Of a stretch of DNA of 64,000 nucleotides, positions 1,438 through 46,461 are shown in pieces. Source of the stretch: Endomicrobiales bacterium (GTDB taxonomy: Bacteria; Elusimicrobiota; Endomicrobiia; Endomicrobiales; JALOBY01); NCBI GenBank assembly GCA_963796955.1, contig CAWCNJ010000007.1, forward strand, positions 32,001-96,000, in the 5' to 3' direction. Numbering within the stretch: the first letter of the stretch is position 1; each line of letters opens with the position of its first letter. Both the position numbers and the translations under genes were made by a program. A model generated the notes under the pieces. It was not told the origin of the DNA. It searched no databases and saw only the letters and a list, made by a program, of their open reading frames with translations.

Positions 1438-1992
1438 GTGAAGCAACTGGTCGTGGCGCTCATGATACTTGTGCAATTCACTCACGCTTCCGTCGAAGCG
1501 GTGATCTATTCGGATATCGGCTCGGCGCAGGTTTTTCAGCCTGTTTCCTGCGTGGAGCTTTTAAAGATCGTTTGCGGTAATACCGTCGACAGTCTTAAAG
1601 GCATGGCGGCCCTGGTTAATTTGGCTGCTGCCCGGTCAAAAATGCCGTCGCGCCCCGCAAGAGCCCCGGCGCGGAATGCAAGAAATACGGTGGCGATATT
1701 CCAGCCGGTGCGCCCCGGCGAGAACGGGCGAGATCTATCCGTTTCACCGGTTATGGACGAGCGGATGTATGCGCGCGGGAAAGCAGCTTTTAGCATGTTG
1801 CCTGCTGGGGCGGTAGTGTTATTTATAACTGTTTGCATGTTCTTTTTTCGCCGGGAATTACTTGCCTGGCTGGCAGGCTTTGTACATTTTCCCGGTAATG
1901 TCCTACTACTTATTTTCTTCCGGAAAACCCTGATCACCGTTACACGTGGCCGGGGTTTTCAAATTTCGGAGGCGCCATCATGCGGCGGTTAA
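1438..1992 (+). CDS. Hypothetical exported/membrane protein upstream of the giant gene
   Basis: GTG start after AAAGGG, signal-like N-terminus, C-terminal hydrophobic helices; overlaps the giant-gene start by 13 nt. Confidence 0.55.
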   Translation: MKQLVVALMILVQFTHASVEAVIYSDIGSAQVFQPVSCVELLKIVCGNTVDSLKGMAALVNLAAARSKMPSRPARAPARNARNTVAIFQPVRPGENGRDLSVSPVMDERMYARGKAAFSMLPAGAVVLFITVCMFFFRRELLAWLAGFVHFPGNVLLLIFFRKTLITVTRGRGFQISEAPSCGG

Positions 1993-4900
1993 TTAATCTC
2001 TGGCGCGGATTGGTTCTGTGGGTTCAGTCGCTCACGGTAATGAAATCTTTTTGCATTGTGCTGCTTTCGGCATTCTTTATCAACACTATGATGTGGTCGG
2101 GCGGCTACGCCCAGGCGCTGGACGATCAGCGAAATAAAGATAAGCACCAGCACGATGTGCTATATCAGAACCCCGGCTACCTCTCTCCCCAGGCCGCCCA
2201 GAACGGCCCTTATAAACAGCAGTTGGACCCCACCACGAACCAGACTCTTTTGATCAATCGTACCGATGGTACGATCGCCGGAATACGGGATAATGCGACC
2301 GGCATGACCCTGATGTATGTAAAAGATAAGAACGATCCGACCAAAATTACCACGATCGTAACGGATAAGGATGGTAACCGGCTCGGTTCATTTGAAGGTA
2401 CAAAAAGTTTTGCCGACGTAAAAAAAGCAGGGATCACAGAGACGCCGCAAAATGGACCGACGAAGAGAGGTCCCGAAGTACGGAAACAACGCCGCGGCGG
2501 CGATGATGTTGCTCCGGGTGATACTATTAAGGATGGCGACAAAACCGGTAGTTCCGGTCAGCCCGGCTCGGATGGGTTGTCTAAGGGTATTTCCGATTGG
2601 TTGACCGCGTATAATAATGCCGACCCCGCCACACAGGCGTCAATGCTTAAAGATGCCGGCCTTTCCGCTCAGCAGGTAAAGGCGATGTCCAAAGAAACCC
2701 AGGAAAAACTTGCCGCCTATCTGAAATCTAAGGAAGATAAAGATAAAGGAGGCATCACGGCACGGGGCCTTGCACAAAGGCGCGGCGGGCTGAGCGCCTT
2801 TATGGACATGGTACGCAGCGGCGCGACAATGTCGCTGCAAAACCTTGTAAGTTTCTTCTCTAAGAAGACTAATCCCGACGGCACGCAGGCATTGGTAAGC
2901 ATGGCCGATATTCAGGCCGCGGCTGCCGCTAACGGCGTAACGCTTATTGCTTCGCAGACAGATATGGGCGGCCTTGCCGATGCCTCCGCCAACGGTCCGG
3001 TAATTGCCCACCTCGCCGGTTCTAAAGGCCAGCCAGGCTCGTTCGTTCTGGTGACGAATGTAAGCAACGGCAACGTAACGTTTACCAGCGCCGACGGGAA
3101 ACACAGATATACCGTAACGGAAGACCAGTTCAAAAAGATGGGCTTTGACGGTAAAATACTTTCAACAAAGGCCGAAGGAACAGGCCTCAGCGGCAGCGCC
3201 GCTACCGCTACAAAAGGCAATTTTGTAACGCGCCTTCTGGGAAGCATTTGGAAGGCATTTAAAAGCGCCGCAACCCCGGCCGCTACGCCGCCCGCGACAG
3301 GGCCAACCCCGCGTGTAGCGAAATCCAAAGCACAGACGCCGCCAGCGGCTACACCGCCTGCAGCTACGCCGCCGGTAGCAAATCCGCCGACTGGTCCTAC
3401 GCCGGTCGCGCCTACCACGCAGCCCCCTGCTGCTACAAGCCCGGATGCCTCGACGGTTATCACTAACGTCAAAAAATGGATGTACGACTTTTTGCACGCC
3501 GATGCGGCGACCCAGGCAGCCATGCTCGCCAAGCTCGGTCTGACGGCCGGTGTGCTTGCGAGCCTTGGCCTTACGGTGGCGAGTATCGCAAAAAGCCTGG
3601 CACAAAATGGCGACAAGATCATAAGCTACCTTGAAGCTCAGGGCGACAAGATATTCAACTGCGCGGTAGACGCGCTTGGCGGCCTGCTGACCGGGTCTAA
3701 CAAAAACGGTCTTACGCTGAACATGATATTGGTAGATATGGTCACGGGGGGTTTAACCGACCAGGCGGCAGCCGGCGCTCAAAGGATACAATTTAGCTTC
3801 CTCGCCATTAATACCACAGCCAAAGTTAACGGGCTTACCCTTACCGCTGCCAATACGAATATGGCAGGCCTTGGCCAGGCCACCGCGGGCGGTAAACCGG
3901 TCATTGTGCATCTTAATGGAGACAGTACAGGGCATTTCGTTACCGTGACCGGCATTTCCAACGGCACCGTTTATTACACCGATTCAGACGGCACAAAAAA
4001 ATCCATGTCCGAGGCGGATTTTGCCAAATCCTGGTCGGGAGATATCCTTACGCAGGCGCCTGTAACGGCGCCCGGTACAAGAACGCTTAACGCGCGTCAG
4101 CAGGCGACGATAAGGGGTGCCGGCACGCAGTCAGTCGGCTACAAGGCAGCTAATAACGAATACAACCAAAAAGGCGCCACCCTTCAGCAGAAACAGGATG
4201 CTCTCGCCCAACTTATAGCGCTCGCTGCGGGCGGTGATGCAGATGCCAAGGCGTTGCTTAAAAAGATACTCGGTGATAACAAGACCGATCCGAGTTTGAT
4301 AGCCATGATCGTCAATGACCCTACTATGAGGAGCTTCCTCAATTCATTGATCGCTGACAAATCTACCAGTACTACTGTCCTCAAAGCGATCATGGGCAGT
4401 ACCGACGAATCTCTGAAGGTAGGCGCCGGAAGAGCCATTATGTATAGCGGGGCGAACATAACTGATAAAAAATGGGCGTTGGACATACTTTTTGGTGTCC
4501 CTTCCGCCCACAGTTTGCTCACCGAATTGGCGACAAATTGGAACTCTACAGATAAGGAAATTCTTAAGTACATGATGGATCACGGCCCCCGTGATATTTC
4601 TTTTGCGTCCGCTAAAACGTTACTTATAAAGAATCAAGGATATCAAAAAGAAGCCATGGCCATGCTGCAGGGTGTCATGGGTGACCCAACCGCCGCCTGG
4701 AGCGACAGGGTTGCCGCGGCAACTATACTTGCAAACAGCAAAAACGCGGACACCACGGTTAAGGGCCAGTCGGATACGGCGCGCAACCTCGCCGCGCAGT
4801 GGCTTATTGATGTCGCTAACGGTACTATAGCATCAGATGCGGCCACAATGCAGAAGGCGCATGCCGCGCTGGTGACTATGGCCAACGACGGCGACGGTAA

Positions 4901-7900
4901 TACCAGCGATGCAATACTGTTAAAGCTTGCAAAATATAAGGATTCAAACGGCGCCGTTGACGATAGCATCGCGATCCCCGCCGCCAAGATGTTCATATAT
5001 ACCGGCAAGAACCAGAAGGATAAGGATGCCCTGATAACCTATCTTGCCGGTGTGGCGCCGGGAGATAAAAAAGTTGAAGGTTTGCTGGAAGATCTCGCAA
5101 AAAATAAAAAATCCGGACAGGGTACGCTTGAAGATCTCCGGGACTGCGGTATTGCAGTAGTTTCAATATATGCATGCGGGACTCTCTTGAACAACAATTG
5201 GGATACCAGCAATTCTAAAGCCAGACTGTTAGCCTGGATGAACGATACATCAGGTAATACCAGTATGGTTTTGCGTATTGAAGCGGCCGGACAGCTGCTT
5301 AGCAGCGCAAATGTCGATGATACGACTAAAGAATCGGCGATTACCCTTCTCGATCAGGAAGCGTCTGTTATATATGTAGGTGACGGCGGAGATACCGCCG
5401 CCATGCAGGCTGCCCAAAAATATCTTAAAGATTATGCGGCCACCTCAACCAATAACACTGTGCTCTTTTTCCTGCTTTACCATTGCAAGTACGCTCCTGC
5501 GCGCGCCATGGCAGGGACTACCATAATAAACAGCAAAGCAAGCATGACGGATAAGCAGTATGCCATAACTTTCCTTGACGGCTTAGCGCCGACTGATTCC
5601 TACGCTGAGAGCGCTCTTAAAACTATCGCAACCAATACCCGCGATGTACCGGTCTTGAAAGCTCTGTTGAACTGCAATGACAAGAAGGTAGTAATAGCCG
5701 CGGCCCTGACTTGTGTTACCAAAATAAATGATGAAGGTGCCAAGGAGTTGGGTGTTGTAAAACTTCTGGGTCTTTTGAGCGACCCCACCTGCGCCACTCA
5801 GGCGAGTGCCGCATTATTGCAGGTAGCGCAAGACAAGAATTCAGGCAAGACGATATTGCAATGGCTGACAGGTCTGTCGGGTGATAAAAATTTCACTATG
5901 GGCGCTGCCTTGACCGATTCTCTCAGGATCGCCGCAGCCAAAACCCTGGTGACCGGCGGTTTCGATCAGAACGCCCAGAACATGGGCATGGACTTGCTAT
6001 TCCATTATGCCAATGGTGATGATGGTTATACGGCTGATCCCGCGATGAAGCAAAAGGCTATAGATACTCTTTCGGCTGTCGCAGGTACAAGCGGGCTGAG
6101 CCAGACTACCCTCTATCGTTTAGCGGATTGCGGTATACAGCAGATACAGGTACAGGCATGGGAGTCTATAGTATTAAGCCCCTATGCCCAGTCCTCCAAC
6201 GATCCCAATGATACACACTCTAAGGATTATGCGTTAAAACAACTGCATGATCGTGCCAAAACCGATCCTGCTGCGATGACGGCATTAAGAAATATCGCCG
6301 GCAGCAGCAGCGCCAACCTTTCTCAAAAGACATTGCAAACCATTATCGGCTACGGCGCTGATTTCAGCGCTATAGTCGTTACCGCGTTAAAAACCGGTTC
6401 CCTGGGCAAGTATGGCAATATGACGGATGGCACTTCCTTTAACGCGTATTGCGTGCGGCAGTTGATACAGTGCGCGAAAGGCAGCTATACCGACGCCGAT
6501 GGCAATGTTGTAAACCTTTCCGATACGGACCGCAAGAGTGCGCGCGGCTATCTTAAGGATATCGCGGGAAATAGCGATGCCAGTGAAGCGGTGCAAACCA
6601 TCCTGATGAAATTGAACCCGGGCGACGACCCGTCGTTCGGCGACATCGCTATAACCGCGGCGACAACGATAACCCTGGGCAAAAAATATAGCGAAAGCGC
6701 CAAGAACGCGGCGGTAGATACACTGCTTGCCTATGCGGGCGCAAACGGCCAAAGCGTCCCGGGGGAATCACCGGCCGACAAGGCTGAGGCACGCGCAAAA
6801 CTGGGCCTTATCGCGAAAAGCCCCGGCTTGAGCGCGGCCAATATTAGAAAACTTGCAGTGTGCGGTATCGGCAGCATTGAAATTCCTGCGCTTGCCAGCG
6901 AGATCGGCAACAAGAATTTTAAACCTGACGAACAGACCGCGGCGCTCCAGCGGCTTAATTTATATTCTGACGGGCAAAAAGACAGCGAGGGCACTCAGTT
7001 CAAGAAAACTGCGGAAGACGCCCTTGTTGGAATAACCCAAAGAATGGACGTCAGTCAAACTATTTTGGCATGGATGAAAGATCATTGCATGGATCCTGTG
7101 GCTAACATGGCCACCTGTTACGCCCTGGTCCTGCGTTTTTACAGCTCCAAGGACGGGAAGGACGCGCTGCAGGATCTGATCGCCTTTGCTAAAAGCACCA
7201 ATGCGGATACCAAAAAGACCGCACTCAGGTATTTGACGAACCTGACAGAGCCGGAGTACGCTACTGAGCCTGTGTTGGTGTCGTTGCTGGAATGCGGTAT
7301 AGGCTCTATTGCGATAGCCGCTGCGCAAACCCTGCTGGGCCTTTCAAAAGATAATGTTCCTTTTTACCAGGCAGCCCAGAACCTGGCGCTTGCCAAACTG
7401 TTAGCCTACGGCTCCGGAAATGTGCCCGGTGCAGATGCCGGCGACAAGAAACTTGCTCATGATGCCCTGCTCGCCGTAGCTAAAGGACCATATACAGATG
7501 CCGCCATCCTGCAAACGCTGATAGGTTTAACGGATCTCAAGGATTTCGGCGATATTTGCGTGGCCGCCTGCGTTACCGCTTTGACCGGCAATCAACATGG
7601 CACTTTTGATCAAAAGCTGCAGGCAGCGGCATTGGCCCAGCTGTTAAGCTTCTATCACTCTACTGATCCGGACATGGCGGCATTTAAAGATACGGTGCTG
7701 GGCGCGCTCAGGACCGTGGCGCAAAGTCCTAATACGTCCGTAGCCATCCTTAAGATACTTGAAACCTGCGGGATACCCGAAATAGAGGTTGACGCGTCGC
7801 TTGGCGTGCTTATGAGCAATGCCAGCGATACCGACAAACTGGCAGCATATGGCTACCTGAAGAAATTCATACTGGAAGATTCCGATCAGAAAGGCGCCGC

Positions 7901-9656
7901 GATAGCCGCGCTTAAGACCGCCGCCGGCAACAACAAAGAAAGCCAGGCTGTCCTTCAACTCTTTATAGATTGTGGTATACCGGAAGTGGTGATAATAGCG
8001 GAAACAACGGCCGCCACCGGGAACTATGACATTAAATTCAAGAAGGCCGCGGCGCAGGCGCTGCTTGACGTGGCGGCGCAGGGCCCAGCCGGCCCGTACT
8101 ACACTATGGTTGTCGCCGCGCTTAAAACCATTGCGGATAATACCAATACAGATGTTAATATACTGAATACGCTCATGAATTGCGGCATCGCCTCAGTTGA
8201 GATCGCTGCCTGCCAGACGATCATCAATGGTAAGTTCACGGGTAATCTCGACGGGGTGCGTGGCCGCCTCGACAGCGCGACACCTTATATAACAGCGTTG
8301 CGTCAGCAGGCTATGGACAAGCTGATGGGCTATGCTCTGGGTGGTACGGCAGACGCCGGTGCGGCCCTTCAAGACCTTAAAAACATTGGCGGAAATCCGA
8401 AATCCGATTCGTGGGTCCTGGCCGCGCTGATGACCTGCGGGATTGCCGGGGTTGAAATTATTGCCGCGAAATCGATGGTATTGAGTAATTATGATTACGC
8501 GACATATAAAACTCAGGCTCTGGAAATACTGCTTGGTTACGCTAACGGCGGCACAGATAATGCCCAGGCCGCCTTTGATGCCATGTTATCGTTGGCTGGA
8601 GATAAAGATCTGTATGGAGAGGCGCTCCTGTGGTTGATGAACGCTGATGTCACACTGGTAAAGGTTAACTCCGACAGTGTTCAATCGATCCAAATAACAG
8701 CCGCCTCAACTATTCTGGTGAGCGGTAATTTTGATCAGAATGGTAAGGACCTTGCGATCGCCATGTTGTTGAATTGCGCACTGAACGGTACGGCCGATGA
8801 TAAGAAGGCCGCCATGGCAGCGCTTAAGGATGCCGCAAAAAACACCAAGGCGAGTTTAAAAACCCTTAATATGCTGATGGATTGCGGCATAGCTTCTATT
8901 GAGATCATGGCCGCAGAGACGTTGTTCACTACTACGGACAACGGGAATGTTAAGGCCGCCTGCATAGATAATTTGTTGTTATTCGCCCAGGACGCATCAG
9001 ATCAAGACGCTATGGCCGCCGCGATTAAAGCGCTCACTGAAATAACCGGAAAAACAGCTGATCAGGATACGCTCCTCAGGCTTATGACGTGCGGTGTAAT
9101 CCCGGTCGAAATCGCGGCAGCTGTTTCTTTGGCCCTTAACGGCGATCCCGGGAAGGATGACGACCAGTCCGTGCGCGACATGGCCATTCAGCACCTTATG
9201 GATATTGCCACGAGCAACTCTCCTTATAAGGCCGCTGCCATTTCTTCCCTGGTCTCCGTCGCCGGCAGCCAGTACGCAACCATACCGTCGTTGACCAGCA
9301 TGATGAATTGCGGCATTGTATCGGTTGAGATCTCCGCGGCAACGACTTTACTAATGCAGATCAAGGATACCAACAACCAGGATCTGCAGGATCAGGCGCT
9401 AGATAAACTTTTCAGCATAGTAAATTTTGTCGATCCCTATACCGGTGCCCAGTCGCCATACAAGCAGGCTGCGATCCTTGCCCTGCAAAATGTTGCCGGC
9501 GACTACACCAATATTGACGGCGATTGGGAAACGCTCCCCGGTTATGGAATGTCTCTGGCATCATTACGAAGGCTCGCCGGATGCGGTATAGCCTCGGTCG
9601 AAAAGATAGCTAATGAGACGCTTAATCTGAGAGCACGGCACGGTTTATCTTGCTAA
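1980..9656 (+). CDS. Giant secreted protein, part 1: signal peptide, two C39-like peptidase domains (one degenerate), Pro-rich linker, HEAT-like alpha-solenoid
   Basis: GGAGG RBS at 1968-1972; signal peptide ending AQA; FNCAVDAL...PVIVHL...GHFVTV...YTDSDG...FAKSWSG C39 pattern; repeated CGIxxVEIAA helical units. Probably continuous with the next ORF. Confidence 0.85.
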   Translation: MRRLINLWRGLVLWVQSLTVMKSFCIVLLSAFFINTMMWSGGYAQALDDQRNKDKHQHDVLYQNPGYLSPQAAQNGPYKQQLDPTTNQTLLINRTDGTIAGIRDNATGMTLMYVKDKNDPTKITTIVTDKDGNRLGSFEGTKSFADVKKAGITETPQNGPTKRGPEVRKQRRGGDDVAPGDTIKDGDKTGSSGQPGSDGLSKGISDWLTAYNNADPATQASMLKDAGLSAQQVKAMSKETQEKLAAYLKSKEDKDKGGITARGLAQRRGGLSAFMDMVRSGATMSLQNLVSFFSKKTNPDGTQALVSMADIQAAAAANGVTLIASQTDMGGLADASANGPVIAHLAGSKGQPGSFVLVTNVSNGNVTFTSADGKHRYTVTEDQFKKMGFDGKILSTKAEGTGLSGSAATATKGNFVTRLLGSIWKAFKSAATPAATPPATGPTPRVAKSKAQTPPAATPPAATPPVANPPTGPTPVAPTTQPPAATSPDASTVITNVKKWMYDFLHADAATQAAMLAKLGLTAGVLASLGLTVASIAKSLAQNGDKIISYLEAQGDKIFNCAVDALGGLLTGSNKNGLTLNMILVDMVTGGLTDQAAAGAQRIQFSFLAINTTAKVNGLTLTAANTNMAGLGQATAGGKPVIVHLNGDSTGHFVTVTGISNGTVYYTDSDGTKKSMSEADFAKSWSGDILTQAPVTAPGTRTLNARQQATIRGAGTQSVGYKAANNEYNQKGATLQQKQDALAQLIALAAGGDADAKALLKKILGDNKTDPSLIAMIVNDPTMRSFLNSLIADKSTSTTVLKAIMGSTDESLKVGAGRAIMYSGANITDKKWALDILFGVPSAHSLLTELATNWNSTDKEILKYMMDHGPRDISFASAKTLLIKNQGYQKEAMAMLQGVMGDPTAAWSDRVAAATILANSKNADTTVKGQSDTARNLAAQWLIDVANGTIASDAATMQKAHAALVTMANDGDGNTSDAILLKLAKYKDSNGAVDDSIAIPAAKMFIYTGKNQKDKDALITYLAGVAPGDKKVEGLLEDLAKNKKSGQGTLEDLRDCGIAVVSIYACGTLLNNNWDTSNSKARLLAWMNDTSGNTSMVLRIEAAGQLLSSANVDDTTKESAITLLDQEASVIYVGDGGDTAAMQAAQKYLKDYAATSTNNTVLFFLLYHCKYAPARAMAGTTIINSKASMTDKQYAITFLDGLAPTDSYAESALKTIATNTRDVPVLKALLNCNDKKVVIAAALTCVTKINDEGAKELGVVKLLGLLSDPTCATQASAALLQVAQDKNSGKTILQWLTGLSGDKNFTMGAALTDSLRIAAAKTLVTGGFDQNAQNMGMDLLFHYANGDDGYTADPAMKQKAIDTLSAVAGTSGLSQTTLYRLADCGIQQIQVQAWESIVLSPYAQSSNDPNDTHSKDYALKQLHDRAKTDPAAMTALRNIAGSSSANLSQKTLQTIIGYGADFSAIVVTALKTGSLGKYGNMTDGTSFNAYCVRQLIQCAKGSYTDADGNVVNLSDTDRKSARGYLKDIAGNSDASEAVQTILMKLNPGDDPSFGDIAITAATTITLGKKYSESAKNAAVDTLLAYAGANGQSVPGESPADKAEARAKLGLIAKSPGLSAANIRKLAVCGIGSIEIPALASEIGNKNFKPDEQTAALQRLNLYSDGQKDSEGTQFKKTAEDALVGITQRMDVSQTILAWMKDHCMDPVANMATCYALVLRFYSSKDGKDALQDLIAFAKSTNADTKKTALRYLTNLTEPEYATEPVLVSLLECGIGSIAIAAAQTLLGLSKDNVPFYQAAQNLALAKLLAYGSGNVPGADAGDKKLAHDALLAVAKGPYTDAAILQTLIGLTDLKDFGDICVAACVTALTGNQHGTFDQKLQAAALAQLLSFYHSTDPDMAAFKDTVLGALRTVAQSPNTSVAILKILETCGIPEIEVDASLGVLMSNASDTDKLAAYGYLKKFILEDSDQKGAAIAALKTAAGNNKESQAVLQLFIDCGIPEVVIIAETTAATGNYDIKFKKAAAQALLDVAAQGPAGPYYTMVVAALKTIADNTNTDVNILNTLMNCGIASVEIAACQTIINGKFTGNLDGVRGRLDSATPYITALRQQAMDKLMGYALGGTADAGAALQDLKNIGGNPKSDSWVLAALMTCGIAGVEIIAAKSMVLSNYDYATYKTQALEILLGYANGGTDNAQAAFDAMLSLAGDKDLYGEALLWLMNADVTLVKVNSDSVQSIQITAASTILVSGNFDQNGKDLAIAMLLNCALNGTADDKKAAMAALKDAAKNTKASLKTLNMLMDCGIASIEIMAAETLFTTTDNGNVKAACIDNLLLFAQDASDQDAMAAAIKALTEITGKTADQDTLLRLMTCGVIPVEIAAAVSLALNGDPGKDDDQSVRDMAIQHLMDIATSNSPYKAAAISSLVSVAGSQYATIPSLTSMMNCGIVSVEISAATTLLMQIKDTNNQDLQDQALDKLFSIVNFVDPYTGAQSPYKQAAILALQNVAGDYTNIDGDWETLPGYGMSLASLRRLAGCGIASVEKIANETLNLRARHGLSC
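4150..9630 (+). repeat. HEAT/armadillo-like protein repeats with a CG(I/V)xx(V/I)EI(A)A motif
   Basis: About a dozen CGI/CGV motifs in Ala/Leu-rich helical units of roughly 60-80 aa; degenerate at DNA level. Confidence 0.7.
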
Positions 9657-9723
9657 ATCGAAAACAGCTATCGCTCACTCAGAGAAAGAGAAAGCGGATA
9701 AGGCCGCTGGGCCCGTTGCGCCT

Positions 9724-12700
9724 GTGGTGCATGCCGCAAGCTCGGATTCCACGACCGTTGTGACGTACATTACAAATAAACTCGCGGAATTTTTAACGGA
9801 CACTCCCGCCCAACAGGCCGCCTTCCTCGCCTCGTTAGGCCTGGATATGACGACGCTGATGAGCCTTGGCCTGTCCCTGGACCAGATAGCGGCGTACATC
9901 GCAACAAACAGCCAGTCGATCATCGCATACCTTACCTCTCAGGGATCACAGATATTCAACTGTGCCGTTGATTCGCTTGGCAATCTTATCGGCGCCGGCA
10001 CCGATAAAAATGGCCTTGCCGAGAATATTATCCTGGTAGACATCATGACAGGCTCTCTGAGCGTTCAGGCAAGCCAGGGCCTCAACGACCCGATACAATT
10101 CAGCGCGCTTGCTATCCAACAGACGGCTGCACTCTACGGGATAAAACTAACAGGATTCAGCACCGATATAACCGGCCTTACTCAGGCAGCGGCAGGCGGC
10201 AAGCCTGTCGTCGTGCAGGTTACCAACAGCAGCGGCCAGGGCCACTTCGTGGTAGTTACCAGTATCACTAATGGTATCGTCACCTACAAAGATAATGACG
10301 GCACCGTTAAAACGATGAAGGTCGCTGATTTCCAAAACGTATGGTCCGGCGTTATCCTGTCTCAGGACCAGATAGCGGGCGACAACGTCTCTAGACTTTC
10401 CTTACTGCAAACTCAGCAGATCATGGGGGCTTCCGGCAACCCGATAACGTATGTTGTGCGTGGTCTGAATGCCGCCGGATCCTACGTAGTGCACACGGTA
10501 ACACATGCGATTGCGCATCCTCTTGATACGATAAAAACAGTTCAAGCAGATATATCTAAAGTTCAGGACGATATCGTTGCCGTAGCCAAGAAAACCTGGG
10601 ATATTGCAGGAAAAGTCTGGACTGGAATTACCAGCAAATCCACCTACCAGGCCATTGGCACGTGGATCAAACATGCAGCGGATACAATACACCATGGCAC
10701 CGTAGAAACTTTCAAGGCCACCTGGAAGCTGACGAAAGCGATCGGCAACTTTTTTGCCGCCTTTGGCGATCTGTTCACAGGTGACTGGAGCGGATTCAAG
10801 AGCAGAATGGGCGGTGCCTGGACCAACCTCACTCAAAGCGTCGGCCAGGTGCTCAGCGGCGCGGCGGAAATTGTTGTGGGCTCCATCGCCATTACCTCCA
10901 TAGTAGCGCCACTTGCCGTTGGCATTGCCAGGGCATGTGGTTCCAACTGGATGAACAATAACTGGAACGGGATAGTAAAATACGGTAAAGGTGTTGTAAT
11001 AGTCGTGGCAGCGATCATAATCATATACTTTACCGGCGGGGCGGGAGCAACGGTTTTTGGGTCTACCATGCTGGCATCAGCGTGCGCAGCCACCGCGGTC
11101 GCTGTGGCTGTTTCAGTGTCAGCCCAGATGGCTTTCAACCATGGCAATATCAACTATAACCAACTGGGCAAGACCGCTGTAATAGCGTTTGCTTCATCAA
11201 TAGCCATGGCCGGTGCAGGCACGTTAGGACAGGCATCTACTTTCTGGGGGCAGGTTGCCGTTAGTGCGGCCCGAGGGGCGGTGATAGCAGGTGTCACTAA
11301 CATTGGTAGTCAACTTATCACTACCGGCCATATTAACTGGACTAAGGTTGCACTTGCCGTAGGCATAGGCGCAGCCCAGGGCGCGGCCAACGGCGCGATG
11401 AATTATGAGGTAAGAATAAGCCCTAGTTTGCAAGCCAGCAGCTGGTACACGGCTGCCTGGGAAGGCGCAGTCCGCGGCGCGGTAAACTCATTCATAAGTG
11501 ATATGATCACTGAAGGCATATATGACAGGAAATTGCACGGTTATAGAATTTTACGGGATATGGGCGAGGGCGGGGTTAAGGGCGGTGTGGAAGGCTCCTT
11601 GCAGGGTGCCGACGACGGTAAAGGCGGCAGGACCGGAGGTTTGTTCAGCAAACTTAACCAGTCATCGGATGTGGCGGGGAAGATATTCGCGGGAACTTTT
11701 TCAGGGTTTGCCACCGGCACCGCCGATTATTTCGCCAAATGTCTGATCGAGTGGCAGGCGCCTGACGCGAATGGTATTAAAGGCGCGATGATGGGAGGGA
11801 TGTTTAACGGCCTTATCTCAACTGCGCTTGCAACCAGGACGTATGTGCCTGGGGGGGCACCTCAACCGGGCAGCGCGTATGGCATTGACGGGTGGCTTAA
11901 CGGCGATAACACTTTGGGATTCGTCGTAGGTACCGTGCTGAACACCGCGGGAAGCTTTCTTGCCTCTTACATCAGCGGCGCAGCAGTGTTTTATTCTACG
12001 GCTGGCGCCAGGGGCAGTTACAATGACTACCTGAGAGGCACTGATGATGGCGCCACCGGTAACCGCTTTGAAGTAATGATGGCCGGCTCGGTGGAGCAGG
12101 CGCTTACCTCGTCCATTGCTGAATCATTTGCCAGATTCGACGAAGCGCATGTGAAATATTTTGAAGGCAAGTCTCTTGCGGATCACGTAAACAATCTGGT
12201 CGGTGATGAAACGTATAAGGATCCTAAAACCGGCACTATTTACCATTCCGACGCGTACATCGATTTTGATGCGAGATCCGGCAGCTTCTTTATCATAGCG
12301 GGGCACGTGGATTACAAAACACCGTCTGGATCTGTGGTGACTGCGACATATGAGGACGGCGGCATTGTCAAAGCCGGCGATGATACATTTAATGATTATA
12401 CAGCGCTCGGTAACAGGTACTGCGGCTTTGCGCTCGTGCCAACCACCAGCGATGACCAGCGTGTTATACTATTAAGCGGTCCTATTGACGCCCCGACCTT
12501 TGTAAACGGCTATGATACGCCGACCTACCGGCTTGGCCTGTCAGCCAACGGGAAACTATCCGACTTATTAACCTTCAACGGATCAAATGGCTGGAGCGTT
12601 GACCTGCAGGTAAACGAGCGCTCGGCACAATCGCCGATCCCGGGAAAGATATTTGTTACCAGGGCCGAGGATGGAAGTTTTAATGTTTTCTCTCTCGATC

Positions 12701-15700
12701 CGGAAACCGGCAATCCTGTTGACGCGGGCACTATTTCCGAAGATCAGCTCAAAGAATCGCACGGCCGCGTTAAGCTTGCCGGCCGTTTGGACGGAACCGC
12801 CGCTGAGGCAGTAACGACCGATCTTCTGGGCCATACTATTACTCGTCAGGATAAATTTGACGCCGGTGATATTATAATACATATCACACCTGATGCTGCC
12901 GGCGGGGGGTTCGTCGCTTCATTTAAAGGAGAAGTTGAGAATGCGAAGATAAAAGGTGACTATGTGCATGTTACCTACGGTGGGGGCAAGTTCTATGCGT
13001 TAGACGGCGATGCGGCGGAAGTCGGTATAGCGAATGCGGATAACAACCTTGACTTAAAAGGCCAGGGAGACGGTGCGATCGCGCGCGTCAGAGGGGCAAG
13101 GAGGCCTGTTACTACTACGGATGAGGGGACCGACGATCTAGCAGCCGCCCTTGACGAGATACTGCCGGGCGACGGGCCTGCAACAGACGGAAACACCGGC
13201 GAAAGCGGCGGTCACATACGTGCGACCATTCGCAAATCGGCTACACCTTCTGCGCCGGCGCCCGACGCCGGCACTCCGGACGGCCAGCCTCAACCGGCGC
13301 CTGAAGCGACTCCTTCAGCCCCGGTGCCGCCTGTTGTTAGGACGGATGGTGTGCTTGCCCTGGCCAACACCCAGGGAAGTACGGGCATAGATCCTGTTTC
13401 AGATCTGCTCGATCAACTATTTCCAACACCGGTGACCGAAGGCGGGCCGGTTAACGACCAGCCGCCAGTAACTAAGAATGACGCGAATGCTCCTTTTGAG
13501 CCGTTGCCTGGAGAGAACACTGGCGACGGCAGTGGCGCCCCGACTATTGTTCCCCATGCTCTCAGACAGGTTACTCCTGCACGATCTGCCACTGCAGATG
13601 AAGACCAGCCGCCGGTTCCCCCGGCAGAAACAAATCCAGGTGCAGTGCCTCCGGCAGTAGAAAATGGAGGTGTGCTTGCGCTGGGCAGCCCGACAAGTAA
13701 TCTGGATGCAGCTAATATTGTAGATCAACTTCTCACCCTTGCGCCTGCGGCAGATACGTTGCCGGATCAGCCGCCCGCAGCAAAGGATGATACGCCGCCG
13801 TCAGCCGAAACCCTGCCGGGGGACAAACCCGGTAACGGTGATAGCGGACCGTTAACCCCTCATGTTTTAAGACAGGCTCCTCCCGCGCCCACAGCCACTA
13901 CCGGGGAGCCTCCGCAACCGATCGTGCCGGATCAGCCTTTTGTTGACGGTCCCATACCGGATTCGGTGAAAACCGACGGTGTTATGGCCTTTGGCAACCC
14001 GGGCGGCAACGGCGATCTGCTTTCTTACGTAGAGGATCAAGTTGTAACCACCCCGCCGGTTTCCGGCGGCCCTGCCCCTGTGGCTGATACTGCCGAAGAC
14101 CAGCCTCCCAAAGATAAGGATGTTGTGCCTCCTTCCGCGGGACCGTTGCCGGGAGACAATGCCGGCGCTGGTGAGAGCGGCCCGATAACCGCTCATGCCT
14201 TTAAACAGACTACTCCCATGCGGACTCCAGATGCCGGGGAACCCCCGCAGCTGGTTTTGCCTGACGAAACACTTTTCGGTCCTGACGTTCCTGATACGGT
14301 TAAAACCGACGGCGTGTTGGGCGTTGGCAACCCGGGCGGCAACGGCGGCCTCATTTCATATGTAGAAGATGCGGTTGTTACCCCGCCAGTTTCCGCCGGC
14401 CCGGCGCCCGTGAGTGATGCTCCGGAAGAGCCGCCAACACCGCCTGAAGCAGCACCCCGTGCCCCTGAACAGTTGGCTATGGGACCCGCAGGCGTGCTTC
14501 CGCCGGTAGGAACTCAGCCGAGCGGACTTAACACCGCACCACCACCCATAGCCGGCTCAGGCTCCGATGAAGAGCTCATGAACGCCGCCGTGGATGATCA
14601 TTCCGATACGTTCACGGATGAAACACTTACCCACGCGGATGTACGGTTGAAAGTAACCAGGGGAAGTGACGGCACAATATCCGTCAGTTATGTCGGCCTG
14701 GTAAACGCATCTATTGACGGCGTGCCTCAAACCATCTATTACGGTCCGACCGGCATGGCTTATGCATTTGATAATCCTACGCTCGCGGGCGCGGCTGCCA
14801 ACGGCGGACGGTTGGTACTAAAAAATCAGGCCCCGGGTATGGGTGTGCATCATGTCGGGCCTCTTGATGATAATGGCAATGCCGATACCAGCGACGACAC
14901 TCTTACCGGCGGCGATCTGGTGCTGCGGGTATCAGCTAATAACGACGGCACCTTCGGTGTAAGATTTGGCGGTGTGGAAAACGCGCGGATCGGCGGATCT
15001 GACCAGACCCTGTGCTTCCGGCCGGATGGCGCAGCCTTCTCCCTTGATAATTCTTTCCTTGAGAAATATCACGGCAGCAGTATTACATTGAACGACCAGG
15101 CTACAGGTTTTGGTGTGCGTACTGCCAATGGCGACAAGACATTAACCGGTGGAGACATGGTGTTGAGGCTATCCGGTTCCGGACCGGACGGTTTTAATGT
15201 AAGATTCGCCGGTTTCGATGGAGCTGAAATTGATGGTGTGGCCTTTAAGACATGTCAAATGACCAACGGCTCTTACTACGCCTTTAACAATACTTCCATG
15301 GCGGATGCCTTCGATAACAATAAGGGCATGCTTGTGCTGAAAGATGACGGAAAAGGTTTTGGAGTTGAAAAGGTTGGCGCTCTGGTAAATGGCAAAGCTG
15401 TGGCCACCAGTGAAACGCTGACCGCCGGCGACTCGGCCTTCAAAGTAACTAAGAACTATGACGGTACTTTCGATGTGCGGTTCGCTACCATACAGAACGC
15501 GAAGATAGGCGATGTGAGCGAAACGCTTGCCTTCGGCAGGCCTGACGGCGTGGTGTACGCCTTAAACGATGACCTGCTGCAGGAAGTAATACCGCACGGT
15601 AAGGACCATGGCAACTTGGTGATAGCGGATCAGGGCAAAGGCTTCGCCGTCCAGTTAGCAGGGCCTGTGGGCGCGGACGGCAGGTCTACGGTCACGTCCG

Positions 15701-18700
15701 GGAAGCTGAGCGGCGGTGATGCGGTGCTCACTATTTCAATTGCCGCAGACGGCGTATACGGCGTAAGGTTTACGGATATCATAAATGCCGATGTGAACGG
15801 CGTCGATCAGAAGATCTACTTTGGTCCGGATGGCACGGCCTACGGCCTGGACCGTTCCGTGGTCGCGGCCGCCGAACAAAAACACGACGGGATACTGATA
15901 CTTGCCGGCCAGGCGAATGGTTTGTCGGTCAAGAACGTAGGGCCTGCTAACGGTAAGGGAGAGGCCGGTGTTACCGACGAGAAACTCACCGGCGGCGACC
16001 TGGTACTGTATGTCGGCGATAAGTCGTTCGACACATGCGATGTAAGGCTCGCCGGCGTTCAGAACGGCGATCTGGACGGTGAGCATGTAAATATCATGTT
16101 CAAACCCGACGGCACCGCGTACGCCTTCGATACCGCCGCTATCCTCGCATCCAAACAACACGACGGCATTCTTATGCTCGCCGGCGAGGCGGCCGGCTTC
16201 AAAGTGCGCGAGGTCGGCGCGGTCGTCGACGGCCATGCCTCTTTCAGCACCGACTTGCTTACCAGCGGCGACCTGGGTGTAAAGGTCTCCTTTGATCCCA
16301 AAGGCGGCGAACCCGAAGTCAGGCTTGCCGGCATTATAACCAACGCCGAGATAGCCACCAAAATACAAACCGATATAAAACAGACGATCATCTTCGCCAA
16401 CGACGGCACGGCTTATGCCTTTACCGACGCGGCACTTGCGGAAGCGAAGGCAAATCGTGATTCTGCTGCATTCAACAATTTGCCGGCGGTGGTCATGCTT
16501 CGGCAGATGGGCATTCTTGGTGACAATACTAACGCGCATTTCGGAATAACTATCGACGGTGGAGCATCAGATTATGCGGTTCAAATAGTAGGAAAGAGCG
16601 GCATGACGAAGTCGTCGCTGCTGGGCGGCGACATGGTGCTGGAAATAGCGGAGAAGAACGATTCGTACGCAGCACAGGTTTCGGGAATAAATAACGCGCT
16701 TACGCAAGATCATACCTCGGTAAAGGTCTTCCTGTTCGGGAATAATGCGTATGCGCTCCTCCCCGAGCTGGATTTACCGGACGCAAAAAACGTCATGGTA
16801 GATTCACAGGGTAATCTGGTGGTCATGAGCCAGGATCAGGCTGGCAAAGCGTCCGCGGTATTAATAGACCATGAAGGCAACCAGACCGCTATTAAAGATG
16901 TGTACGCAGATAACGCCTGGATCACGACGGGATTGAAAGCCGCGGGAATAGGTGAAGACGTAAACGGTCTTATGTTGATATACAAAGCCGTCAGAGGAAA
17001 AGATGGGGCTCCTGATAAATGGGTGTCTATGTTCGTGCATCCCGTCGGCGACGGATATTTTGCGGAGCTGCAAAAATACACCTGCAACGACGGTTCGGTG
17101 ATATTTGAGTCTCAGGGTAAATCACGGTCGTTATATAAAGTAAATACGTCCGCCGATGGAACACAATCACTGGGCTTTATTCTCTCCGGATCGTATTCGT
17201 CAACCAGTGAAGGGGACACGGTCAGAAAGCAATTTGATGTTAATGCAAAAGACGGCAGCGTAACTTCCGATCTGTATGTTCAACGCGGCGCTGCCGGTTT
17301 ATCCGATGATGTCTTCAAAGATAAATACGGCACTATTCTAAACGAGGTTAAGATCAAGGGTATACTAAAATCAGATAGCGAAGGTTTCATCGCTAAAACA
17401 GTAAGCGGTTATGGCCTAGAGTTCAAAGGCGATGATGTTGTCGGCGCGTTTACGGGTGACTTGGATGTTAAAAACGGGAAGAGTAAGATCCATTACAGCT
17501 TCGGCTCGGATGGTATGTATCTTGGGTCAGTAGTTACCACAACCAGGGCGATCCCCGGCACGGCCGCGTATTATGTCACAACAGTCACGTACGACTATGA
17601 TGATAAAAAATCAGCTCCTGTTTCTGTGTTGAAGGGCAATATGGGTATCACGGGCATCTATACTGATCCGACCGGCAAACAGTATATTTCAGGCACCCTT
17701 GTTATAGATAAAGAGACCGGTCGTATAGACGTCGCCAACGGTGTTGGCCGTAGAACGGAACAAGGTATCCTCGTTGAATTTACCACCGACAAAAACGGCA
17801 GGGAGCGGGTTGTGCGGACATACGGGCCTACCGGGATAGATACTGATGTCAGAGCACAAAATTCTTATACGACTTACGCAAATGGACGGTCTTATGACCA
17901 TACACAAAACGCTTCAGGTTTCGGCAACTTTACCACCCCTGACGGCTCAGTATATACCAGCGGCAATGTCATAGTGGTGAACGGCGAATTGCGCGTAGGT
18001 GATGGCGATTGTACGTCATTCATGGGCAAGGGTAGTTTAGCCCTGACCGGCAAGAGCGATAGCCAGGGTAACGCGAGCTATTCGTGGATATCAGGTACCT
18101 ATCACGGCAAAGCATTAAATACCGAGCTGGTGCCGCTCAGCGGCGGTGGATATCAGATATTTGACGCTACTATTTTCAATGGCGACTGGTTCTCAAGCGT
18201 AGACGGAATGACTGATATAGATTTCACCATGGTTGGTTTGAAACAAGTAACCGTCGGTACGAAGGAAAATGCAAAACAAGTATGGATGTTTGAAGTCGGC
18301 ATCATCGGCAAACAAGATCAGGATTTCAATGGTGTGAACATGCCGCGCCAGGGCGTAGCGGGCGGTAATACTATCGCTCCTGTACCCAGCGGGGAGGAAT
18401 CGGAATTTGGATTGCAGCGTGAATTGTTGGTGACCACGGGTGATTATAACCGCTTTACAAAGAGTGCAACGATCAATATTACCGCAACGAGCGGCAATGT
18501 CGCCTTTAAAGCCGATATCCCTGTAGATTCTGCTCAAGATGGGCATATAAAATCCCTTACCTTCAGCGGTTTTGAAGAGGGGACGCGCGTCAGGATGGGC
18601 AAGGGCGGGCTGCAGTACGAAACGCAATACGCCGGTCAGGGCTTGCTTGCCTCCGGCTATCGCGATATTACCGAGGGAACGTACATAGATATACATATCC

Positions 18701-21700
18701 CCGGCAGCCTTGACGCGAATATGGCGTATACCATCGGCACGGTGAACGATCATTTCACCCTTACCGCTATGTCTAATCCCAATGGCACCGGTAAATCCCT
18801 TGGCGATATCACGGTGCTTGACAGAACGTTTGTTGACGGCAAGATTACCAGCTACGTATCAAGCAGCAGCAGCGATGATGTGTTCTATGGCGAGTATACA
18901 GTAGGCACTGTCCGTGTAGATCTTAAGAGCGCTGGGTTTGCTTCCACCAATATTTCTCCTTTCACTGCCGCCGGCGGTCATCTGCTGGGCGCTGTCGCTA
19001 ACGGAGTTGGCGCTGTTTGGAATGGCCTCCTCGCCGCCTGGTACACATATAAGAGCGATTCTGTATCTGCAAAACAGGCAGAGGAAATGTCCTCTCTCAT
19101 GGGAGCTGCTGCAATTGGTGATGCGGTCGGCTTTATCAACTCCTTGGGTAAGATCGGGGAATCCATAGGTGACTCGGCAGCAATACTTGCACAAGCGTTT
19201 AATTCTTGGACCAGCAATTGGAGCAATTGGTATGAGGGTGACAATGCTGCCGAGGTTAAGGCATATCATATGTCGCAGCTTAGGAACGACGGTATTATAA
19301 GCACGGTGGTCGGCCTTTCAATTGGCCTTAAAGACGCGGCGAAGGGATTTAGCTACGCATTGGTAGGCGGTATCGCGAGCAAGTTTGGCAGCGGGTGGGG
19401 CGTCGAAACTCTTGCAGAAGGGCAGTTGCTTTTCAGAGAAAGTTCTGTTGTTGAAGGTGCTATTAAAGGCGCTACCGTTGGGTGGGGTGTGGTAACCAAT
19501 GTCTCAAGCCGGGTCTGGGGTGGGGTCCTGTTCTTGGGTGGTATGCTCAATATGGCGTATGCGGAATACGATAATTTTAAACGGGCGTTGAAAGTTTCGA
19601 TATACAATGCGCTCATGAACGGTACGTTTGCGTTTAACATGGACGTTGATCTGAATGATGAAAATGCGCAGGCTGGGCATGATTGGATCACCGAAGGCAC
19701 TAATAGAATCTATGGCGAGAAAAATCTGTCTGACGATTCATTCGCCTTACGTTCGTCCGCGCGGTTGTGGGTTAGCACGGCATTTGTTGCTGTGTTAGTA
19801 ACCGGTGCCATCATGGCTATTGAAGCCGTTGCGACAGCGGCTACATCCGCAGTAACATCGACTGGTTCAATGATAAAGGCCGGATCATCTTTGTTAAATG
19901 CCGGACGGATAGTATTGTCCGATGCGCTAACCGGCGCTTATACTAATGCGATCGTTGATACCGGTCTTAGAATAGTTAAGGGTGAAGATGTGACCGTTGG
20001 AACGATAGTGAGCGCTTTTGTCAGCGGTGCGATCCTGGCCGGTGGTATGTCGTTGGGAGGCAGACTTGCCGGTTTTGTTGCGAACAACGTTAAATTTGGT
20101 GTGCAGGCCGCTACCCAAACACTTGCCGAAGGGGCTGCCGTTTATGCAAAGAGTGGGGGATTGTTTGCAAGCATTGGTGAACAAAGCTTGGTAAAAGCTG
20201 GTTCGATTACAGAAATAGGAGCCATACTTACTGCCAGAGTATTTAATAGTTTGAGTATATGGGTCGCCGGAGCTATAGGCAAACTAGGTGCTCTTGCCGC
20301 GAAGGGTGAAAAATTTGTTACCGCTGAGGCGATCTGGGGCATGGCTAAATCCGCGCCGTTGTTCACCTCGATCGAAATCGTTGCAGGTATTGGATATAGG
20401 ACATTGTTCAAGGGCATGTCATATGACTCAGCGCTTGCTGACCTGGGCGGCTATAATGGTATTGCCACCAAGTTCCTTACCCAGCCGCTTGAGTTTGCTG
20501 CCATGGGCATCACTCTCGGATTTATGATGCAGGTGTTCCAGGCTTCTAACCTAGTAACCAGAGCATTCTTTGGTAACCGTACTTTTGGCCCCGCGCTTGA
20601 ACTGTTCTCCACACGGCACACGTTTGGAAATTTATTCGATTCTATATCGGTATTGTTTGGCACAAAAACAGCCGCGGAAATAAGTGAAATGATGTTGCAG
20701 AACCTTGCGAAAGAAGGAGGCGCTGGTATTGCATTTATCGGTCATGCCGAAAGCGCGGCATTTACAGCCGCATCATTGTGGCTTGGCGAACAGGCCGGCT
20801 ACATTGTCGGCAGACAATTGGGTCTGAAAGGTCGGGACCTGGAAAAATTTGCCAGTGATGTGGCCTTCTACAGCCTTATGTTCATTCCTAAATCAACCGC
20901 TGATCCCAGCTATGCAGTACATGAAGTGCTCTCGCGCAGGGTCATAGATGCTGCTGGTAGAAGCGAGGAGGGTATTCAGGGGCTGCAAGTTGCTTTAGCG
21001 CTGGCACCTGACGCTGCTGCAGCACGCGATGTGCTGAGGCGGTATGATCCCACTCTAAATAAAGATTCATTAACTCCAGAATTGGTGGACCATTTACAGA
21101 CAAAACTTTCTGAAACGTCTGCACGTGACATTATTGTGCTTGGTTCTGTTGATGCCGCAGGCGCACAAGCCAAGGCAAACGAAGTGTTGCTTGCTAAAGA
21201 TGGTACGAAGGTTGATGGATATGTGGTGACCGAGGCATTGAAACGGGCAGCCATTGATCTGACCATTGAAGGAGCGCGCGAAAGTGTTTCTGCCGAAATT
21301 GCTGGCATGGGATTGCACACTGGTGATCCGGAAAGAGCGATTGACGAATGCCTTGAACGCCTTGGTTCGATTGTTCAAGACAAATCTAATCCAATTCGCT
21401 CATTGGCCGCAATAGCCATCGGACGTGAATGGTCTGATCTAAAGACGGCCGTCGGCCGCCTTGATATGCTCGCTGGAACAAATCTGGATATGGCTGCAAA
21501 GATCAGGGAGTTATATCAGGAATGGACCACCTCGTTATTAACAGGTGAACCGCTTGAGAATAACGCGGATTTAGCGCAATTAGTATCAGAGGTTTTCAAG
21601 CTTGCCTCGGAGAAAACAAGAATTGCCTTAACAGCAAAAATTGATAAGGCAACCGATCCAAAAGTCGTCAGAGATTTGACACAACAACTTAATAACCTGA

Positions 21701-30678: not shown

Positions 30679-30750
30679 ATTTAACTTCAGGCAATTGGCA
30701 ATGGGCGATGGGCAATAGTAATGCCTCTACCCGGTATCTTTAGGATGATC

Positions 30751-31740: not shown

Positions 31741-31742
31741 TA

Positions 31743-32732: not shown

Positions 32733-32740
32733 GGGAAACA

Positions 32741-42704: not shown

Positions 42705-44965
<2,261 letters not shown>

Positions 44966-44969
<4 letters not shown>

Positions 44970-46040: not shown

Positions 46041-46050
46041 GGAGAAACAT

Positions 46051-46428
46051 ATGAAAAGCATAATTTTGTTGACGTTGGTCAGTATCACAGCTCTAACATC
46101 AAAGGCGCACGCCGCCGGCGCGCAGGGTGGGGACGCTTTCAGCAGCTTTATCCCGCTGATCGTTATTTTCGGTATTTTCTATTTCCTGGTCATACGCCCT
46201 CAGCAGAAGCGCGCCAAAGAGCATGACGAGCAGCTTAAGGCCCTTAAGAAGGACGATAAAATTATATCGACCGGCGGCATTTACGGCACCATTACCGCGG
46301 TTCGTGAGAACATCCTTGAAGTAAAAATCGCCGATAACGTTAAGGTTCAGATGGCGCGCAGCGCGGTGAGCGACATTGTTAAAGACGAAGTAAAGACGGA
46401 AGTGGTAACGCCGACGATCGTAAAATAA
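46051..46428 (+). CDS. yajC: Preprotein translocase subunit YajC
   Basis: FYFLVIRPQQKR, STGGIYGTI; AAGGAG RBS. Confidence 0.94.
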   Translation: MKSIILLTLVSITALTSKAHAAGAQGGDAFSSFIPLIVIFGIFYFLVIRPQQKRAKEHDEQLKALKKDDKIISTGGIYGTITAVRENILEVKIADNVKVQMARSAVSDIVKDEVKTEVVTPTIVK

Positions 46429-46461
46429 TAGAGTAAACTAACTACACGGAAAGGAACGCGT

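Follow-up and report, generated by a model that had tools for sequence, protein, structure and literature searches.

Two giant open reading frames with three C39-like modules

The window analysed here is a stretch of 64,000 nucleotides (nt) from contig CAWCNJ010000007.1 of an Endomicrobiales bacterium, and it contains a pair of giant open reading frames (ORFs) adjoining on the forward strand, ORF1 and ORF2. Each of them encodes an intact C39 cysteine peptidase module (module 2 in ORF1, module 3 in ORF2) followed on the same chain by a motif resembling a double-glycine leader, and an older third copy, module 1, lies upstream of module 2. A profile search of the genome assembly (2.1 Mb in 11 contigs, 81% complete) detected modules 1, 2 and 3 only. 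The features considered first are listed below, with motif positions counted backwards from the predicted cut (-1 being the last residue before it), and with AlphaFold confidence given as the predicted local distance difference test (pLDDT).

1980..9656, + strand: ORF1 (2558 amino acids, aa), with signal peptide, dead module 1, live module 2 and cargo A
2040..2117, + strand: Sec-type signal-like N-terminus of ORF1; its translation has a second Met, a hydrophobic core and an AQA end
2586..3164, + strand: module 1, a degenerate C39-like domain (profile E 2.1e-18; AlphaFold core pLDDT 74-94)
3186..3221, + strand: motif relic past module 1, LSGSAATATKGN, with L at -12 and G at -2 kept, T at -4 and N at -1
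3432..4121, + strand: module 2 (aa 485-714), with helical N-terminal part, intact C39 core and tail (profile E 1.9e-148)
3660..3662, + strand: Cys561 of module 2, predicted nucleophile (codon TGC)
3933..3935, + strand: His652 of module 2 (codon CAT)
3981..3983, + strand: Asp668 of module 2 (codon GAT)
4086..4121, + strand: motif of module 2, LNARQQATIRGA (aa 703-714), with the predicted cut past Ala714
9724..30483, + strand: ORF2 (6919 aa), with module 3 at its extreme N-terminus, then cargo B
9724..10431, + strand: module 3 (aa 1-236), with helical part (1-74), C39 core (75-215) and tail (216-236)
9961..9963, + strand: Cys80 of module 3 (codon TGT), which opens helix 80-89
10243..10245, + strand: His174 of module 3 (codon CAC), aligned with the PCAT1 His
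10291..10293, + strand: Asp190 of module 3 (codon GAT), 16 residues past the His, as in PCAT1
10396..10431, + strand: motif of module 3, LSLLQTQQIMGA (aa 225-236), with the predicted cut past Ala236

Modules 2 and 3 as C39 peptidase domains

Modules 2 and 3 had been described in the initial annotation as intact C39 peptidases, and all eight of the coordinates given there for the Cys, His and Asp codons and for the two motifs translated as claimed. The peptidase assignment was borne out by Pfam family PF03412 (Peptidase_C39), which was detected in both giant ORFs (59.7 bits in ORF1 and 28.7 bits in ORF2, with a cut-off of 22), the Cys-His-Asp triad being in place; the match spans profile positions 40-130, corresponding to the His/Asp part, and the Cys region lies outside it. 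The NCBIfam C39 matches (FapD, with E 0.0016-0.0021, FilB and a C39-ABC family) were weak and far under their cut-offs, the FapD and FilB alignments beginning at ORF1 residue 559, and a search of a protein atlas returned generic C39 clusters only, with scores of at most 0.79. No ATP-binding cassette (ABC) transporter family was found in either giant ORF by the Pfam and NCBIfam scans. The possibility that module 2 or module 3 is a dead binding domain was rejected, given the intact triads.

The two modules share 48% identity across 240 residues (BLASTP). A profile of 40 modules matched the exporter peptidase domains PCAT1 (E 4.3e-9) and LahT150 (E 9.5e-8). In the alignment of these 40 modules, whose members were partly picked for a profile match reaching the motif, so that its column counts are biased, column 80 was occupied by C in 29 modules and by S in 7, column 174 by H in 40/40 and column 190 by D or E in 39/40. 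The same alignment showed a conserved Q73, seven residues ahead of Cys80, and N79 directly ahead of it in 29/40 modules; Q73 may be a candidate counterpart of Gln21, the oxyanion Gln of LahT (PMC6363468).

Structural model of module 3 and its tail

ORF2 residues 1-270 were modelled with AlphaFold using the 40-module alignment as input (mean pLDDT 87.5, predicted template modelling score 0.85). The best PDB matches retrieved by Foldseek with this model were the double-glycine peptidase domains of ComA, LahT and PCAT1. In VIA-align comparisons, model residues 75-215 aligned with PCAT1 16-140 (Z 13.1, 2.3 Å, 122 residues), ComA 12-139 (Z 12.7) and LahT150 22-142 (Z 12.5), with root-mean-square deviations (rmsd) of 2.3-2.4 Å over 117-122 residues for the crystal and cryo-electron microscopy chains; the top row corresponded to the PCAT1 nuclear magnetic resonance domain 7n87 (Z 13.3, rmsd 3.3 Å, model residues 1-215), and the HlyB-type domain 3zua was matched with Z 11.2. 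The offset of the structural alignment puts Cys80 on residue 21 of PCAT1 and residue 17 of ComA, which we take to be the catalytic cysteines of those enzymes. The helical N-terminal part (1-74) and the tail (216-236) are additions of module 3 to the known C39 domain.

Residues 221-236 of the tail were modelled with a pLDDT of ~97, with a helix at 227-232 (-10 to -5) and residue 234 (-3) extended, and the confidence dropped after +4, to a pLDDT below 50 from residue 241. In the leader bound to LahT150, positions -1 to -3 are extended, positions -4 to -11 form a two-turn helix, and residues -4, -7 and -12 are placed in a hydrophobic groove (PMC6363468); the layout of the modelled tail is the same. 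As modelled, the fold, the triad and the shape of the tail are compatible with a C39 peptidase holding a double-glycine leader. When aa 1-215 (C39 part) and aa 216-260 (tail) were supplied to a complex prediction as two chains, three runs without controls scored 0.02, 0.83 and 0.01, which speaks neither for nor against docking; the tail alone produced chance-level matches only among PDB sequences (E 0.79).

The double-glycine-type motif in the window

Double-glycine leaders end in Gly-Gly, Gly-Ala or Gly-Ser (PMC6363468, Bobeica et al. 2019), and the consensus of the ComA leader is Leu(-12)-x3-Glu(-8)-Leu(-7) (PMC6363468). The two window motifs have GA at -2/-1, L at -12 and I at -4, and both are internal, directly behind the peptidase, not N-terminal in a separate small exported precursor. 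The initial annotation had counted positions -12, -4, -2 and -1 as matching the leader consensus and positions -8 and -7 as departing from it. The four matches stand, and T and Q at -7 are a real departure, whereas position -8 had to be corrected, since both copies have Q there, the second commonest residue at this position in the family.

The homology between the modules had also been described as ending right after GA, and the BLASTP alignment does stop 7 residues beyond it; in the 23 columns ahead of GA, modules 2 and 3 agree at L(-12), Q(-8), I(-4), G(-2) and A(-1) alone. The strict pattern L-x7-I-x-G-[GA] was found once per giant protein, at the homologous site, with 0.26 and 0.72 occurrences expected from composition; because the two modules are paralogues, this count is weak when taken alone.

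Conservation of the motif in homologs

Run against 1.84 billion representatives, a profile of modules 2 and 3 matched 174 proteins (E <= 0.001), of which the best 150 were used. The window's own ORF2 was dropped from this set, and a local hmmsearch yielded 182 domain stretches in 149 proteins. The loose pattern [LIVMF]-x7-[LIVMFT]-x-G-[GAS] was sought in the 60 residues past a conserved WxG anchor, with the following results:

Cys-His-Asp/Glu modules: pattern 46, without 20, too short 4, no anchor 2
Ser/Thr-His-Asp/Glu modules: pattern 21, without 1, too short 0, no anchor 0
His-Asp/Glu modules with the N-terminal part unaligned: pattern 18, without 12, too short 15, no anchor 0
All other modules: pattern 15, without 14, too short 5, no anchor 9

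The background of the loose pattern was 11.4% (448/3929 windows of 60 residues). At anchor-to-motif offsets of 9-24, for which 4.0% is expected by chance, the pattern was present in 40/66 Cys-His-Asp/Glu modules, 21/22 Ser/Thr-His-Asp/Glu modules, 18/30 His-Asp/Glu modules with the N-terminal part unaligned and 12/29 of the others, the commonest offset being 13 residues. Both scans are free of the selection bias of the 40-module alignment, in which position -2 was G in 40/40 and position -1 was A in 27, G in 6, S in 6 and T in 1. The conservation in homologs, whose lack would have refuted the proposal of the initial annotation, was thus found at 10-20 times the chance level, down to ~21-29% identity, and the motif is kept far above chance even at ~20-25% identity.

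Positions left free by the pattern were also examined in 88 motifs: T or S was present at -11 in 53, E or Q at -8 in 67 (E in 41, Q in 26), A, L or M at -7 in 69, and R or K at -3 in 52, a composition that agrees with the double-glycine leader consensus. At -1, the 88 motifs have A in 51, S in 26 and G in 11. The profile matches in many homologs end at positions 236-240, that is, at the motif.

The motif tracked the catalytic His, as only 1/15 scorable modules lacking this residue had it at the homologous place (offsets 9-24). Cys and Ser are freely exchanged at the nucleophile column while the motif is retained, as would suit a self-cleaving module of single turnover. Hint domains and other autoprocessing domains are parallels for such single-turnover activity.

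Module 1 and the modules without the catalytic His

Module 1 has R, G, S and S at the Asn, Cys, His and Asp columns. Ten of the 15 His-less modules, all of them of the module-1 type, end in a conserved tail of their own, ...L-D-x-E-T-K-K-N-T-K-G-[TN]-F-F, in which -12 stays hydrophobic and -2 stays G, -4 being T and -1 either T or N; the relic past module 1 belongs to this TKG[TN]F tail. For module 1 itself, an AlphaFold model built from 10 sequences only had a mean pLDDT of 58.7; a helix was modelled at 205-210 and a strand at 212-214, with a pLDDT of 87 at residues 201-210 and 61 at 211-220, and the model weakly suggests that the dead module still holds its tail. The HlyB-type C39-like domain (3zua) likewise keeps the fold without the nucleophile Cys, whereas module 1 has lost the His too and precedes a live module in the putative substrate protein itself. 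At loci L004-L009 and L016, the order is likewise a signal, then a dead module (TKG[TR]F), then a live one that carries the motif.

A putative self-cleaving cassette and its alternatives

From the fold and triad, the motif and its conservation, the link to the catalytic His and the modelled docking, we infer cleavage, its cis mode and the resulting fate of the cargo: it seems fairly probable to us that the intact module is a cassette that cleaves itself in cis and cuts the giant precursors in polyprotein style. Such a cassette would comprise the C39 cysteine peptidase domain and, ~12 residues past it, its own substrate, a double-glycine-type leader element. This element would fold as a short helix, with its hydrophobic residues at -12, (-7) and -4 docked in the leader groove of its own peptidase, so that G(-2)-A(-1) would be placed at the Cys/His/Asp residues and the chain would be cut past GA, once, within the same molecule. 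The cut would take place after translation and, for ORF1, after Sec export; module 2 is probably located outside the cytoplasm, because the ORF1 copy sits behind a Sec-type signal, where the hydropathy of ORF1 peaks (aa 11-29). Cutting at Ala714 would part the signal-bearing head of ORF1 (dead module 1 and live module 2) from cargo A, and cutting at Ala236 would part module 3 from cargo B. A giant frame with several modules would be cut into pieces, much as a viral polyprotein is.

Several observations weigh against this proposal. The selection bias of the 40-module alignment lessens the value of its column counts, and 20/66 intact Cys-His-Asp/Glu modules were without the loose pattern, several of them being near misses by eye, for example with A or K in position -4 or with T or N in position -1. 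The window motifs have T and Q at -7, the position at which replacement of Leu by Lys or Asp strongly impaired cleavage by LahT150 (PMC6363468). Retention of the motif is no poorer in the Ser/Thr-type modules (21/22) than in the Cys-type ones, and if the former are catalytically dead, they would keep it for binding and not for cutting. The His-less modules keep their own TKG[TN]F tail, which implies that the tail is also structural. In addition, ORF1 has a signal peptide and ORF2 has none, so that, if the two frames do not yield a single protein, the live modules may be located in separate compartments.

Some of these observations would be accounted for if the tail were an uncleaved pseudo-substrate or latch, structural or autoinhibitory, held in the groove of its own C39 domain, the peptidase acting elsewhere if it is active. 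We consider this unlikely, even though it accommodates the motif of the Ser/Thr-type modules, the related tail of the 10 His-less ones, the helix and strand in the weak overall model of module 1, and the precedent of Cys-less C39-like domains (HlyB), which are described as binding substrates without cutting them. A latch needs neither an invariant G at -2 nor a -1 position restricted to A, S or G, and both are demands that the narrow S1 and S2 pockets of cutting C39 enzymes are reported to impose; it is exactly the -1 feature that was lost in the His-less modules, and both the similarity and the model confidence stop just past -1.

It is also conceivable, though distinctly improbable in our judgement, that cutting of the motif takes place in trans, either between two molecules or between adjacent modules on one precursor, with module 2, for example, cutting past module 3. 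The characterised C39 peptidases covered by the sources consulted all cut their leaders in trans, and several modules may occur in one giant frame. However, the intact modules have each their own motif at a fixed, short distance (most commonly the 13 residues past the anchor noted above), a one-to-one pairing that a freely diffusing enzyme would not need, and the AlphaFold model docks the tail on its own domain at a pLDDT of ~97.

A role of the motif as the leader of some other, peptidase-containing ABC transporter (PCAT, type I secretion), the C39 domain in cis being incidental, is very hard to sustain: the motif does match the signal recognised by such exporters, but it is internal, behind a folded domain, and not N-terminal, ORF1 has a Sec-type signal, and this candidate was rejected as no PCAT was found, the two giant ORFs containing the only PF03412 matches of the genome (assembly 81% complete). 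Chance and shared ancestry, by which the motifs would be alike as those of 48% identical paralogues and their leader likeness would be accidental, a strict pattern being expected 0.26-0.72 times per giant protein, are practically negligible as an explanation and already contradicted by homolog conservation at 10-20 times the chance rate, with the free positions also on consensus.

Cargo regions, giant relatives and the junction between the ORFs

The regions of the two frames beyond the modules are the following:

4122..9653, + strand: cargo A (~1840 aa), with 12 'CG[IV]' repeat units
9631..9723, + strand: junction; the ORF2 frame is open from 9631, overlapping the end of ORF1 (stop at 9654-9656)
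10432..30480, + strand: cargo B, with a Trp-rich amphipathic start and hydrophobic clusters at aa 376-467 and 3348-3441

The 12 repeat units of cargo A are marked by 'L..CG[IV]..[IV]E[IV].A' and spaced by 68-328 residues; no Pfam or NCBIfam family was found in this region, nor any relative of it among the 149 module-bearing match proteins. Cargo B was also without any Pfam or NCBIfam family, and parts of it are homologous to the cargo directly past module 2 in the giant proteins P0033, P0006, P0004 and P0016. That cargo B is shared with these giants and cargo A has no relative among the matches suggests, at the sequence level, that a single ancestral gene gained cargo A by insertion, together with a duplicated module. 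The ORF2 frame resembles the linker ahead of module 2 from 'PVAP' on, which lies 12 nt ahead of the GTG start codon of ORF2. One precursor, two genes or an assembly error may each explain the arrangement of ORF1 and ORF2, and the three options are kept.

At least four apparent frame shifts were observed within ~5 kb of housekeeping genes at 42705-47878 of the window: queA runs on in two further frames, tgt changes frame before its C-terminus, and the two parts of secD, broken at 47265/47273, are in different frames; the 20.8-kb ORF2 is open throughout. These shifts could represent real decay or a local assembly error, which bears on the break between ORF1 and ORF2.

Further repeats were observed in ORF2 at aa ~1060-1530 (window ~12900-14300), as Pro-rich units of ~100 residues (...DQPP...GxxGxG...TDGV[LM]A...), and the linkers of the giant proteins are rich in Pro, Thr and Ala. 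The C-terminal ~230 residues of ORF2 (aa 6658-6893, ~29695-30400) recur with 26-31% identity at the C-termini of giants P0006, P0004 and P0033; no family is known for this region, which may be a functional end domain that these proteins have in common.

Of 40 further genomes from this order, 23 have the module, for the most part within open frames of 5000-12000 aa, and in an even phylum sample it was present in 37/201 genomes, own genome included. One open frame of 12189 aa in a related genome contains three modules, the third of which, ~18 kb in, has N-C...H...D followed by VLDSQKLRKYKGS; the presence of internal cassettes within this single frame fits a polyprotein-like processing. In homologs, the region past the predicted cut is often Trp-rich and amphipathic, or hydrophobic.

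In P0008 (aa 604-690), P0025 (aa 505-592) and L016 (G004:C11), a Hint domain of the intein/hedgehog type starts 7-8 residues past the motif, with Pfam Hom_end_hint E values of 1e-11 and 1e-9; judging from their domain composition, these homologs would have two different self-cutting modules in tandem. In another branch, FKBP-type prolyl isomerase domains were observed past the cassette (P0020 aa 365-452, P0037 aa 593-680). Ser/Thr-type modules were found deep in giants P0041, P0043, P0050, P0065, P0069, P0073, P0102 and P0116, with the common site ...[LV]N..Q.KNIRG[AS]-GWW.KFWKG..., after which hydrophobic segments follow; the conservation of residues past the predicted cut in these giants suggests a shared cargo start.

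A broader reading is advanced here tentatively, as one that may well apply but that we would stop short of calling probable as a whole. In it, the giant ORFs are true polyproteins with portable C39 and double-glycine cassettes, each cutting at its own C-terminus with a single-turnover Cys or Ser nucleophile, and ORF1 and ORF2 are possibly one precursor of ~9500 aa. Each cut would expose a new N-terminus, in many cases an amphipathic, membrane-seeking stretch rich in Trp, or else the initial Cys of a Hint domain. The uncuttable tails of dead cassettes would remain as structural spacers, and the cassette would be spread across several phyla of uncultured bacteria.

Genomic setting

The remaining window has the content of a usual Gram-negative chromosome, including ruvC/ruvB, queuosine genes, secDF and genes for lipid A and the lipopolysaccharide core. 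One gene is located directly 3' of ORF2:

30721..31740, + strand: PorV/PorQ-family outer-membrane barrel gene (NF033709, E 8e-34, 117.7 bits, cut-off 90)

From the position of its gene, this barrel may be a candidate handler of the cargo. The region 3' of ORF2 (window 30721-37372) encodes, in addition to the barrel, an S-adenosylmethionine methyltransferase and a pair of large, TPR-tailed Wzy_C (O-antigen-ligase-like) proteins; all of these are possible partners of the giant proteins in handling or glycosylation.

Relation to known systems and significance

The C39 domains of PCAT and of ABC transporter maturation and secretion (AMS) exporters (PCAT1, 4ry2 and 6v9z; ComA, 3k8u and 5xe8; LahT150, 6mpz) have the same fold and the same Cys/His/Asp layout as the modules described here, and the same kind of signal, with hydrophobic residues at -12, -7 and -4, G at -2 and G, A or S at -1, is found in the family motifs. 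The module of the giant ORFs differs from them in having no ABC part and an extra helical N-terminal part of 74 residues, and in the place of the leader, which here is C-terminal to the peptidase in the same chain, whereas in those exporters it is N-terminal on a separate small peptide.

FapD of the Pseudomonas Fap amyloid system, to which a weak NCBIfam match was obtained, is described as a periplasmic C39 peptidase with a Sec signal; in contrast to the giant-ORF module, it is small and free-standing, its target in trans is reported as unknown, and it is unfused to a substrate (PMC5557850). The cassette as proposed would work like the Lbpro leader protease of foot-and-mouth disease virus (PMC3885795), a papain-fold enzyme reported to sever itself from a polyprotein at its C-terminal end, the tail being bound in its own active site. 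The specificity of Lbpro is different, the giant-ORF cassette is bacterial and may occur several times per precursor, and the proposed likeness is functional, with no sequence kinship claimed.

Giant proteins of Omnitrophota have been reported to have C39 domains near signal peptides, for which autocatalytic cutting was speculated (West-Roberts et al. 2023, 10.1101/2023.11.21.568195), and that work states that information on cleavage points is lacking. As in our ORFs, the C39 domain is near the front and few other known domains are present in those proteins; they differ in that the accessible reports give no cleavage site, in contrast to the conserved predicted site and the Elusimicrobiota-type host described here. 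A 2026 preprint (10.64898/2026.06.07.730766) presents a cluster of 24 long proteins with PF03412 as the sole Pfam match, and the stem 'cleav' is absent from its available part. In the accessible sections of a 2023 classification of papain-like peptidases C39 is treated as fused to ABC transporters, and in those of Zhang et al. 2012 a C39-like toxin domain is listed. No description of a cis cassette of C39 and double-glycine motif was found in the literature searched, which was mostly outside subscription journals and without supplements.

The occurrence of C39 domains in giant proteins and the speculation on their cutting were therefore known already, and the conserved, readable site appears to be new. 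Further additions are the pairing of a dead module with a live one, the relic tail that follows the former, the statistical link of the motif to the catalytic His, the layout in two ORFs or as a polyprotein, and the Elusimicrobiota-type host.

Omnitrophota, Elusimicrobiota and neighbouring groups commonly have giant proteins, of 5000 to > 100000 residues, which may work as single chains or in pieces. With a site that can be read from the sequence, the cutting of giant proteins becomes a simple mutant experiment, and the predicted site offers a principled division of such proteins for structure prediction. If the proposal is true, the cassette would represent a bacterial counterpart of the viral leader proteases and a naturally occurring fusion tag that removes itself at a defined site.

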